A stretch of 64,000 nt of DNA from Escherichia coli (GTDB lineage Bacteria > Pseudomonadota > Gammaproteobacteria > Enterobacterales > Enterobacteriaceae), in NCBI RefSeq assembly GCF_048403405.1, contig NZ_CP183129.1; one strand, given 5' to 3'. Made by a program: the position numbers and the translations under genes. The notes under the pieces were generated by a model. It saw only the letters and a list, made by a program, of their open reading frames with translations. It did no database searches and had not been told where the DNA came from. Shown here piece after piece: positions 62,533 to 64,000 of the stretch (position 1 is the first letter of the stretch; each line of letters begins with the position of its first letter).

Positions 62533-62982
62533 ATGAAGAAAGCAACACTTGTGATTGGCGTTATTGGCGCGGACTGCCATGCAGTAGGCAATAAAGTTCT
62601 GGACCGCGTTTTTAGCAACCATGGCTTCAGAGTCATTAATCTGGGCGTAATGGTCAGCCAGGACGAATATATTGATGCTGCCATTGAAACTGGTGCTGAC
62701 GCGATTGTCGTCTCCTCTATCTATGGGCATGGCGATATCGATTGTCTGGGCATGCGCGAACGCTGCATTGAGCGTGGGCTGGGTAACATCCTGCTCTATG
62801 TGGGCGGTAACCTGGTGGTCGGAAAACATGACTTCGCTGACGTGGAAACCAAGTTCAAAGAGATGGGATTTGATCGCGTCTTTGCCCCAAGTCATGACTT
62901 AGAAGATGTTTGTCAGCTGATGGCCCACGATATCAACCAACGTCATGACGTTGATACTCGCATTCTTGAAGAGGCAATCTGA
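62533..62982 (+). CDS. glmS: Glutamate mutase sigma (S) subunit / methylaspartate mutase S chain, B12-binding
   Basis: ORF 62470-62982; start at [21 protein letters not shown] (62533) with AAGGA upstream; DxHxxG cobalamin-binding motif (DCHAVG); strongly resembles clostridial MutS/GlmS. Symbol refers to glutamate mutase, not glucosamine-6-phosphate synthase. Confidence 0.85.
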
Positions 62983-64000
62983 TGCAAATCGTCTCTGTCG
63001 ATATTGGATCGACGTGGACCAAAGCAGCCCTCTTCGCCCGGGAGGGGGACGCGTTAACGTTGGTTAACCACGTACTGACCCCAACCACCACCCATCATCT
63101 GGCGAAGGGTTTTTTCTCCAGCCTGAACCTGGTGTTAAACGTAGATAATGCCCTCCCCCTGTTTAACAACGGTGAGGTTGCATTGAAGTATTCCTCCTCT
63201 GCCAAAGGTGGGCTGGCGGTTGCCGCAATGGGGTTGGTGCCATCTATCACCCTGGAAACCGCGAAAGTAACCGCTCACTCTGCGGGGGCTAAAATTGCGC
63301 AATATTACGCCTACAAGCTGAACCGCCGTGATATCCAGGCACTGGAAGAAACGCAGCCCGATATTCTCTTGTTCACCGGCGGCACCGACGGCGGAGAAGA
63401 AAGCTACGGCCTGAATAACGCCCGTGTGCTGGCAGAATCCAAACTCGACTGCGCCATTATTTATGCCGGAAACCGGGATATTCAGGACGAGGTGCAGGAG
63501 ATCCTAGGGCATAAAGACCTGACCATCGTCGACAACGTTCTGCCCGATCTTGACCATCCGAACCCTTTAGCTGCACGCCAGGCTATCTGCGACATATTCC
63601 TTAAACGCATCGTTAAAGGGAAAGGGCTGGATGTCATTGTTGATAAAACAGGCGAAGAACCAATGCCGACACCATGGACGGTCTTTGAACTGGTTAAGGC
63701 AATCAGTAACGTCGATCACAGCTGGAAAGAGTTCATGCTTATCGACATGGGCGGCGCAACCACCGATGTCTATTCAGCCTGTGCCAACACGCTCTCGCCC
63801 GACACCGTTTTACACGGCGTACCGGAACCCTTCGTGAAACGGACGGTGGAAGGCGATCTGGGAATGCGCGTCTCGGCAATGGTGGTTGGTGAAAGTGCGA
63901 AAGAGTTAGTCAATGTGAATTTTGCTCAGCAACCCGCACAGCTGGACGCTTTTTATCATTACCTCCGTCATCTAGTCGCTCATCCCGACTACTTACCCGC
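62982..64000 (+). CDS. mutL: Glutamate mutase accessory protein MutL/GlmL-like (3'-truncated by window end)
   Basis: Frame open from ATG 62982 (overlapping the glmS stop) to the window end; N-terminus [14 protein letters not shown] is an ASKHA-type motif as in clostridial MutL. Not the mismatch-repair MutL. Confidence 0.8.
   Translation, partial: MQIVSVDIGSTWTKAALFAREGDALTLVNHVLTPTTTHHLAKGFFSSLNLVLNVDNALPLFNNGEVALKYSSSAKGGLAVAAMGLVPSITLETAKVTAHSAGAKIAQYYAYKLNRRDIQALEETQPDILLFTGGTDGGEESYGLNNARVLAESKLDCAIIYAGNRDIQDEVQEILGHKDLTIVDNVLPDLDHPNPLAARQAICDIFLKRIVKGKGLDVIVDKTGEEPMPTPWTVFELVKAISNVDHSWKEFMLIDMGGATTDVYSACANTLSPDTVLHGVPEPFVKRTVEGDLGMRVSAMVVGESAKELVNVNFAQQPAQLDAFYHYLRHLVAHPDYLP

Follow-up and report, generated by a model that had tools for sequence, protein, structure and literature searches.

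Gene clusters for the methylaspartate pathway are known from clostridia and from enterobacteria. The operon of Clostridium cochlearium and C. tetanomorphum (PDB 1CCW, 1I9C, 1BE1) has the four-gene order glmS/mutS-glmL/mutL-glmE/mutE-mal. Escherichia coli O157:H7 has a glm-mal-fumD cluster in the ECs0757 region. This cluster has been described and the mesaconase activity of FumD has been demonstrated (Kronen & Berg 2015, PMC4682846), while in that work DUF1446 was given no assignment and the further conversion of citramalate was left unsettled. The DUF1446/DUF4387 pair is now named citramalate lyase CmlAB in PDB 9ERQ and 9EVF. Cml splits citramalate into pyruvate and acetate (bioRxiv 10.64898/2026.01.16.699985), and this 2026 preprint, which uses the enzyme, is all that a literature search for a primary CmlAB paper found.

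The window analyzed here, a stretch of 64,000 nucleotides of E. coli DNA, reaches into the same locus. Positions 62533-64000 are very probably the 5' end of the enterobacterial methylaspartate-pathway operon glmS-glmL-glmE-mal-cmlA-cmlB-(gltP-like)-fumD-cobO, which is accompanied by a convergent gene for a LysR-type regulator. The glutamate-fermentation cluster of O157:H7 is this locus in another strain. Its gene order between cydA and sucD is the same, ORF-A and ORF-B are also found upstream, and its DNA is 98.6% identical to that of the window's locus over 10,983 bp, with allelic differences only. The locus is already known: Kronen & Berg (2015, PMC4682846) published it, and PGAP annotates it as a matter of routine. 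The first-pass annotation was a correct call on an annotated, published accessory metabolic operon, and gene identity teaches nothing new. The window holds glmS and 73% of glmL, and the remaining operon was read from the genome of E. coli TUM14771 (L001), which is 100% identical to the window across 59700-64000.

Family models and crystal-structure proteins confirm that the 149-aa ORF encodes the S subunit of methylaspartate (glutamate) mutase, the adenosylcobalamin-binding component. The gene, glmS, is at 62533..62982 on the (+) strand. NCBIfam NF002612 ('methylaspartate mutase subunit S'), an equivalog model with a cut-off of 110 bits, matches residues 1-147 of 149 with 252.7 bits (E 7e-76), and TIGR01501 gives 245.9 bits (cut-off 135.8), so the curated equivalog threshold for GlmS/MutS is passed over the whole length. 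The glutamate mutase sigma subunits of C. cochlearium and C. tetanomorphum in the PDB match with E 1e-50 to 2e-49, and the C. cochlearium GlmS crystal-structure protein (PDB 1i9c/1ccw) is 62% identical over 124 aa. The E. coli protein differs from clostridial GlmS in having a 12-aa C-terminal extension. Its DxHxxG motif is D14-C-H16-A-V-G19, aligned without gaps at positions equal to those in C. cochlearium GlmS. The histidine of this motif is the lower ligand to cobalt (base-off/His-on). GlmS is predicted to act in the adenosylcobalamin-dependent isomerization of glutamate to 3-methylaspartate. Between E. coli alleles the dN/dS of glmS is 0.054. Direct reading of the sequence places a Shine-Dalgarno AGGA at 62523..62526 (+), 6 nt 5' of the ATG, and GAGGATTACCCATG at this region is kept across genera in a multi-genus alignment. 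An alternative ATG at 62470, which would give 170 aa, was rejected as the true start because all the family models and structure proteins begin their alignment at the methionine at 62533.

The second ORF is likewise confirmed by sequence comparison as the GlmL/MutL accessory protein. The window includes the 5' 1019 nt of glmL (mutL) at 62982..64000 (+), which are open for 339 of 462 codons, and the gene runs past the window end. The glmS stop TGA (62980-62982) and the glmL ATG (62982-62984) share one A, forming a TGATG overlap. TIGR01319 (GlmL family) matches the fragment with 644.7 bits (cut-off 204) and the full-length GlmL of the identical genome (L001 17283-18671) with 884.8 bits. The full-length protein also scores 507.3 bits with the GlmL equivalog NF040745 (cut-off 475) and matches Pfam MutL PF13941 with E 1.6e-138. 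The 339-aa fragment alone scores 385.6 with NF040745, which is under the cut-off only because the window holds part of the protein. Both the clostridial-like GlmS with its DxHxxG motif and its TGATG coupling to a MutL/GlmL-like gene had been proposed in the first-pass annotation, and both stand. GlmL carries actin-like ATPase motifs (VDIGST, residues 6-11, and IDMGGATTD, residues 254-262), and its putative activity is ATP-dependent reactivation of glutamate mutase. A PDB search with GlmL found no solved structure and no sequence-detectable relative, so the reactivase role is taken from the literature. The dN/dS of glmL among E. coli alleles is 0.13. In TUM14771 and in the fetched loci with all three genes, glmL sits between glmS and glmE; the exception is one locus without glmL, where glmE directly follows glmS.

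The rest of the operon encodes the remaining enzymes of the pathway. After glmL the gene order in TUM14771 is glmE, methylaspartate ammonia-lyase (mal), cmlA-cmlB, a GltP-like transporter gene, fumD, and cobO. A convergent LysR gene ends the cluster and is followed by sucD. The presence of glmE and mal downstream had been expected from the window and is thereby verified in this identical genome. In both TUM14771 and EC4115 the annotation flags none of the ten genes from glmS through the LysR gene as a pseudogene. GlmE scores 863.5 bits with TIGR01503 (cut-off 390), matches C. cochlearium GlmE in the PDB with E 7e-190, and keeps equivalents of the substrate-binding residues R66/R100/R149/E171/Y181. 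Methylaspartate ammonia-lyase (MAL) scores 543.9 bits with TIGR01502 (cut-off 286), matches the Citrobacter amalonaticus enzyme (PDB 1KKO) with E 3.6e-270, and keeps the catalytic residues H194/D238/E273/D307/Q329/K331. FumD (mesaconase) scores 1284 bits with NF011921 (cut-off 1060). CmlA and CmlB are AtuA/DUF4387 proteins and match the 'citramalate lyase subunits A/B' of PDB 9ERQ (8.8e-292 and 5.2e-57). The cluster encodes every methylaspartate-pathway step: mutase, methylaspartate ammonia-lyase, mesaconase, and citramalate lyase. Compared with Rfam at E <= 1, the entire cluster, spacers included, gave no match to a cobalamin riboswitch or other known RNA.

The enterobacterial cluster and the clostridial operon share their first four genes but differ in other respects. 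The order glmS-glmL-glmE-mal is constant in every fetched stretch covering all four genes and identical to that in Clostridium, and glmE-mal is present in all 80 of the species loci. The likeness to C. cochlearium extends to GlmS and GlmE, to the Arg/Arg/Arg/Glu/Tyr substrate residues, and to the His-on DxHxxG motif. On the other hand, identity between E. coli GlmL and its clostridial counterparts is only 33-36%, the class I hydratase FumD is one fused protein whereas MesAB is split, and the regulator gene of the cluster is of the LysR type, not GntR. In Enterobacterales, other Proteobacteria, and members of several other phyla cmlAB follows mal, while citCDEF-type lyase genes in glm loci are found nearly always in Firmicutes. 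CmlA is present in 56 of the 80 species loci and CitE/F in 16, and none has both.

This B12-dependent operon is predicted to degrade glutamate to pyruvate and acetate. GlmS would hold adenosylcobalamin 'base-off/His-on' through His16 of the DxHxxG motif, and together with GlmE it would form glutamate mutase, converting L-glutamate to (2S,3S)-3-methylaspartate. GlmL, an actin-fold ATPase translationally coupled to GlmS, would restore the mutase to activity once its cofactor has been damaged. Methylaspartate ammonia-lyase would then release ammonia to give mesaconate, which FumD would hydrate to (S)-citramalate. The GltP-like carrier may bring in the presumed substrate. CobO probably adenylates corrinoid taken up from outside, because E. 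coli is not known to synthesize B12 de novo. With CmlAB as citramalate lyase the enterobacterial pathway now appears genetically complete, and we infer that the operon is active in E. coli in vivo.

The glm cluster is an old enterobacterial one that has long occupied the sucD-cydA interval of Escherichia, Citrobacter, Salmonella, and Klebsiella, and it is polymorphic in E. coli. Orthologues in the other three genera occupy the same slot and are 85-93% identical. The MAL orthologue of C. amalonaticus, for example, is 93% identical to that of E. coli (tblastn), and the arrangement of its locus is the same, with cydA (-), glmS to cobO (+), and the LysR gene (-). The glm genes have an E. coli-like GC content of 50-56%, which is a difference from the clostridial operon. 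A recent clostridial import or clostridial-style island was rejected on account of this GC content and the orthologues in the same slot. Among complete E. coli genomes 1117 of 5426 (about one in five) have the locus, counted where 80% or more of the 11-kb stretch is kept at 95-100% identity, and it is lost in about 79%. The first-pass annotation had placed the locus outside K-12 and in some pathogenic lineages. K-12 indeed lacks it and has mngR-mngAB in its place. O157:H7 carries it, and strain EC4115 has the same organization as TUM14771, but the locus is not confined to recognized pathogens, and strains from chickens, cattle, pigs, a dog, and river water carry it too. NRG 857C has a TPR protein gene in the interval, and in E2348/69 the locus is truncated by ISEc13, with glmS alone left. 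Whether the sucD-cydA interval is in the glm, mng, TPR, or IS-truncated state is a useful marker of strain background.

The position of the glm genes beside cydAB and ORF-A/B had been considered notable, but it reflects shared synteny in a hypervariable slot and is not evidence of a functional link. A link between glm and cydAB was rejected on synteny, since unrelated mngR-mngAB and TPR cassettes fill the slot in other strains and in Morganella, Yersinia, Hafnia, Pluralibacter, and Lelliottia the glm cluster is not next to cydA. ORF-A/B is a separate AT-rich module, an Escherichia-only insert with homologues restricted to Escherichia/Shigella. It is not found between cydA and glmS in any other genus among the compared loci, and the gap between these genes is about 1.2 kb in Citrobacter, which lacks the insert, vs 2.8 kb in E. 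coli. A relative of ORF-A adjoins cydA in a locus without any glm genes. Neither ORF has matches in NCBIfam, Pfam, or PADLOC, and a comparison of the two found no detectable relatedness. An AlphaFold2 model of ORF-A, made with no alignment supplied, has a pLDDT of 35.6, too low to be of use. Under the speculative control proposal given below, this orphan pair might take part in glm control.

The region upstream of glmS includes two conserved boxes, of which the LysR-type box is a minor new lead. The invariant 20-mer TTTTGAAAATAGATCAATTG is at 62399..62418 (+), about 134 nt upstream of the glmS ATG, and may act as operator for the LysR-type regulator, whose gene lies at the other end of the cluster. 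Its core TGA-N7-TCA (62402-62414) fits T-N11-A, the form of LysR-type regulator boxes. The 20-mer is exact in 24 fetched loci from Escherichia, Citrobacter, Salmonella, Enterobacter, Raoultella, Pluralibacter, Lelliottia, and Pseudescherichia, in a spacer that is otherwise 61% identical and AT-rich. Copies with 1-5 mismatches are found in Klebsiella, Buttiauxella, Budvicia, Yersinia, and Telmatospirillum (at most 3 of 200 region shuffles were as good), and Propionivibrio has a copy with 6 mismatches (2 of 200 shuffles). The Morganella loci have no significant copy, and tblastn found no LysR gene there. Within 32 kb of L001 the 20-mer occurs once, with 0 occurrences expected. An FNR site was rejected in favor of the LysR-type T-N11-A box because the TTGA/TCAA half-sites are spaced at N7 and not at the canonical N6. 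The second box, AAATTAGAAGTAGATCACAAAT at 62254..62275 (+), agrees at 16/22 positions with the CRP consensus, AAATGTGATCTAGATCACATTT, in a plain position-by-position comparison. Its right half-site TCACA is invariant, and the columns T-C-A-C-A-A are invariant in a 10-genus alignment. It is possibly a catabolite-control site. A search of 59700-63100 for sigma-70 promoters and terminators gave 11 sites, no more than the 12.6 expected from shuffled sequence, and none of them lies between ORF-B and glmS.

It is quite improbable that in E. coli the operon is silent or decaying and that its reading frames, though intact, serve no physiological purpose. Such a remnant would explain the lack of inducible activity and would fit with the absence of the locus from about 79% of complete genomes, its truncation to glmS by ISEc13 in E2348/69, and the established lack of de novo B12 synthesis in the species. 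In O157:H7 ATCC 700728 methylaspartate ammonia-lyase activity was not detected in a range of growth conditions, and the cluster was therefore concluded not to be expressed; glutamate with or without cobalamins did not stimulate growth either (Kronen & Berg, PMC4682846). However, the ten genes of TUM14771 and EC4115 are free of pseudogene flags, 1117 genomes retain most of the stretch at high identity, and dN/dS values of 0.05-0.13 indicate continuing purifying selection on glmS and glmL. The upstream box is invariant across genera, and the cluster has its own adenosyltransferase and transporter.

Two further readings have next to no likelihood. Haloarchaea use glutamate mutase and MAL in an anaplerotic methylaspartate cycle (PMC5592240), and the enzymes here could serve such a cycle or the biosynthesis of 3-methylaspartate or mesaconate instead of glutamate catabolism. 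However, the locus encodes FumD and CmlAB, which would route mesaconate to pyruvate and acetate, the annotation of the 14-kb cluster includes no CoA-transferase, mesaconyl-CoA hydratase, or methylmalyl-CoA lyase gene, and the neighborhood is without non-ribosomal peptide or polyketide synthase genes. The reading of the 149-aa protein as the B12 domain of another enzyme (a methylmalonyl-CoA/isobutyryl-CoA mutase small subunit, an ornithine/lysine aminomutase component, or a methyltransferase corrinoid protein) next to an ornithine-degradation relative of GlmL draws on a Rossmann-like B12-binding fold and DxHxxG motif common to all these families, but family scores and gene context already refute it: the weak secondary matches (16-50 bits) each fall under their own curated cut-offs, including the MCM C-terminal domain TIGR00640 (50.2 vs 57.45) that the first-pass annotation would have taken as contrary evidence and OraE (46.6 vs 800), full-length GlmL scores 252.4 vs 600 with the ornithine Or-4 model, and the genes downstream are glmE and mal.

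It is a speculative and rather unlikely proposal that the LysR-type and CRP-like boxes are the real control elements of the operon and that the failure of induction in E. coli is due to a LysR co-inducer requirement together with catabolite repression. The conserved upstream boxes are a concrete entry point for reporter-fusion and regulator-binding work. If the proposal is true, defining the inducing signal would establish B12-dependent glutamate fermentation as a niche-specific trait for gut colonization in about 20% of E. coli strains, O157:H7 among them.

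The 149-amino-acid protein encoded at 62533-62982 (plus strand) is methylaspartate mutase subunit S (GlmS). In a family-model search it scores 252.7 bits against the NCBIfam equivalog for this subunit (cut-off 110) and 245.9 bits against TIGR01501 (cut-off 135.8). Its top PDB matches are glutamate mutase sigma subunits from Clostridium cochlearium and C. tetanomorphum (E 1e-50 to 2e-49), and it is 62% identical to the clostridial sigma subunit over 124 residues without gaps, with D14, H16, and G19 of the DxHxxG motif in register. Assignment to another B12-domain family was rejected, as these all score 16-50 bits and none reaches its cut-off (methylmalonyl-CoA mutase C-terminal domain, 50.2 bits against 57.45). 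A mechanical ORF listing gives a longer form of glmS starting at 62470, but alignments to the family models and to the crystal-structure proteins all begin with the methionine at 62533, and the start is therefore placed there. A Shine-Dalgarno sequence, AGGA, lies 6 nt 5' of this ATG on the plus strand.

The last base of the glmS stop codon (TGA, 62980-62982) is the A of the next ATG, forming a TGATG overlap with glmL. The 5' part of glmL runs from this ATG to the window end (62982-64000, plus strand; 339 open codons). The encoded fragment scores 644.7 bits against the GlmL family model (cut-off 204), and the actin-fold ATPase phosphate motifs VDIGST and IDMGGATTD are visible in it. Full-length GlmL, read in E. 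coli TUM14771, is above the GlmL equivalog cut-off (507.3 versus 475) and matches Pfam MutL with E 1.6e-138. The related ornithine-pathway protein was rejected as an identity for it (252.4 bits, cut-off 600), and a PDB sequence search with GlmL found no relative. Comparison of the window allele with a 97%-identical E. coli allele gives dN/dS of 0.054 for glmS and 0.13 for glmL. These low values argue against the glm genes being a decaying remnant, despite the lack of reported laboratory expression.

The rest of the operon was read in TUM14771 (NZ_CP128875.1), which is 100% identical to the window over 59700-64000. The annotated order is cydA (minus strand), two hypothetical genes (ORF-A and ORF-B), glmS, glmL, glmE, methylaspartate ammonia-lyase (MAL), an AtuA-family protein, a DUF4387 protein, a dicarboxylate/amino acid:cation symporter, class I fumarate hydratase, cobO, a LysR-family gene on the opposite strand, and sucD. 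The first-pass annotation had identified the GlmS-type protein and the coupled MutL-like gene and had predicted glmE and MAL downstream. Both genes are present there in TUM14771, which rules out the condition named as refuting this reading; the observation is confirmed and its interpretation supported. GlmE scores 863.5 bits (cut-off 390; E 7e-190 to C. cochlearium GlmE), MAL 543.9 bits (cut-off 286; E 3.6e-270 to Citrobacter amalonaticus MAL, 1KKO), the fumarate hydratase 1284 bits as a FumD-type equivalog (cut-off 1060), and CobO 246.6 bits (cut-off 167.75). GlmE keeps the equivalents of R66, R100, R149, E171, and Y181, and MAL keeps H194, D238, E273, D307, Q329, and K331; we take these to be substrate- or metal-binding residues from the structural literature.

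The methylaspartate pathway appears genetically complete in the cluster and has been published. Kronen and Berg (2015; PMC4682846) reported this very cluster from E. coli O157:H7, comprising GlmS, MutL/GlmL, GlmE, Mal, a DUF1446 protein, GltP, FumD, CobA, and a regulator of the LysR type. In their survey, 26.5% of E. coli strains carried it; they observed no induction of the glm genes in O157:H7 under any condition and left the fate of citramalate unclear. This open step now appears to be closed by CmlAB, because the AtuA/DUF1446 and DUF4387 proteins match the PDB 9ERQ/9EVF chains annotated as citramalate lyase subunit A (cmlA; E 8.8e-292) and subunit B (cmlB; E 5.2e-57). Raoultella planticola Cml (cmlAB), a gift of the Berg laboratory, is described in a 2026 preprint (bioRxiv 10.64898/2026.01.16.699985) as converting citramalate directly to pyruvate and acetate.

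The two types of citramalate lyase are mutually exclusive among glm loci. A survey with GlmE as query and one genome per species gave 80 loci, for which gene content was tabulated by tblastn. All 80 have glmE and mal together, and wherever the fetched stretch spans all four genes the order is glmS-glmL-glmE-mal, except in L038, where glmE comes straight after glmS. The cmlAB genes, at 21380-23064 in the TUM14771 locus (L001), were followed across the survey loci L005-L084. They come after mal in all Enterobacterales loci and also in many other taxa (Betaproteobacteria, Aminicenantes, Riflebacteria, Lentisphaerae, Verrucomicrobia, and spirochaetes), while the Firmicutes loci have citCDEF-type lyase genes in their place. 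Of the 80 loci, 56 have CmlA and 16 have CitE/F, and no locus has both. The pattern is consistent with the acyl-carrier-protein-dependent citramalate lyase having been replaced by a non-homologous enzyme outside Firmicutes.

The region upstream of glmS contains a conserved candidate operator. Rfam matched no family in the whole cluster, cobalamin riboswitch included, and a simple promoter scan gave 11 sites over 59700-63100 compared with 12.6 in shuffled sequence. In a ten-genus alignment the 350 nt upstream of glmS are 61% identical overall and contain an invariant 20-mer, TTTTGAAAATAGATCAATTG (62399-62418, plus strand), 134 nt before the ATG. It is exact in 24 fetched loci and has a single occurrence in 32 kb of E. 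coli locus sequence (expected 0). Copies with 1-5 mismatches are found in Klebsiella, Buttiauxella, Budvicia, Yersinia, and the alphaproteobacterium Telmatospirillum (at most 3 of 200 same-region shuffles as good), and one with 6 in the betaproteobacterium Propionivibrio (2 of 200). The Morganella loci have no significant copy, and tblastn likewise did not find the LysR gene there. The core, TGA-N7-TCA, fits the T-N11-A pattern usual in boxes for LysR-type regulators, and we infer that the 20-mer may be the operator for the LysR protein of the cluster. A weaker lead is a second conserved box and possible CRP site at 62254-62275 (plus strand), which agrees with the consensus at 16 of 22 positions and has an invariant TCACA half-site. 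Both boxes contain GATC (Dam) sites.

In E. coli the interval between cydA and sucD is hypervariable and has at least five different states. Homology between TUM14771 and K-12 ends 376 bp upstream of cydA and restarts about 100 bp past the sucD stop, directly after the sdhX small RNA position; within the window the slot takes up the sequence from about 60109 onward, and in L001 it corresponds to 14410-28378. As the first-pass annotation had stated, the cluster is absent from K-12, which has mngR-mngA-mngB, and present in some pathogenic strains. O157:H7 EC4115 has the same organization as the window strain (98.6% identity over 10,983 bp), and both, like TUM14771, carry ORF-A, ORF-B, and the full glm cluster. 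NRG 857C has a TPR protein, and an Escherichia-like metagenomic contig (L086) lacks glm genes and has a 65%-identical ORF-A relative adjoining cydA, plus one unknown ORF. E2348/69 has ORF-A, ORF-B, and glmS, then ISEc13, whose transposase cuts the operon just after glmS, an mngA remnant, and mngR (L004 14833-17223). This suggests that an ancestor had the glm and mng cassettes together. Among 5426 complete E. coli genomes, 1117 have 80% or more of the sequence from glmS to LysR at 95-100% identity, but only 834 have the window-type LysR-sucD junction, consistent with such an ancestor. Sources of the carriers include humans, cattle, chickens, pigs, and river water.

Given this variable content, the proximity to cydAB, which had been considered noteworthy, is positional and does not count as evidence for a functional link. 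The first ~375 bp upstream of cydA (59736-60108) show only 82.5% identity to K-12, a very low value within E. coli, and the sequence beyond is unrelated. B2 strains such as NRG 857C share ~640 bp upstream of cydA at 90-92% identity. Strains with glm and strains with mng therefore have different sequence in the distal part of the cydAB regulatory region.

ORF-A (60538-61482, 314 aa) and ORF-B (61563-61985, 140 aa), both on the plus strand between cydA and glmS, are a module distinct from the glm operon. The block is AT-rich (31-40% GC). Neither protein matches Pfam, NCBIfam, or PADLOC, no relationship between the two was detectable, and the AlphaFold model of ORF-A is unusable (pLDDT 35.6). Homologs are found only in Escherichia/Shigella; no other genus, Citrobacter, Salmonella, and Klebsiella included, has the pair between cydA and glmS, and Escherichia sp. 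E1V33 also lacks it in this spacer. The dN/dS values (0.43-0.47 for ORF-A, 0.19 for ORF-B) are consistent with real genes that evolve fast.

The glm locus itself is already known and annotated; only the conserved upstream boxes and the clean exclusivity of CmlAB and CitDEF are new here, and both are incremental. The E1V33 locus (L005, 8831-11374) lacks the GltP-like transporter and cobO, so the accessory genes of the cluster are themselves variable. A recent import from clostridia was rejected. The arrangement of cydA (minus), glmS onward (plus), LysR (minus), and sucD (minus) recurs in Escherichia sp., Salmonella enterica arizonae, and Pseudescherichia and, as far as fetched, in several Citrobacter species and Klebsiella oxytoca. 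Protein identities in these loci are 85-93%, close to those of cydA itself, and the GC content of the glm genes is 50-56%. In Morganella, Yersinia, Hafnia, Budvicia, Pluralibacter, and Lelliottia, cydA was not within the fetched flank. Overall, because of the shared arrangement, cydA-like identities, and GC content, the glm cluster is a long-standing occupant of the sucD-cydA slot in Enterobacteriaceae whose presence is polymorphic in E. coli.
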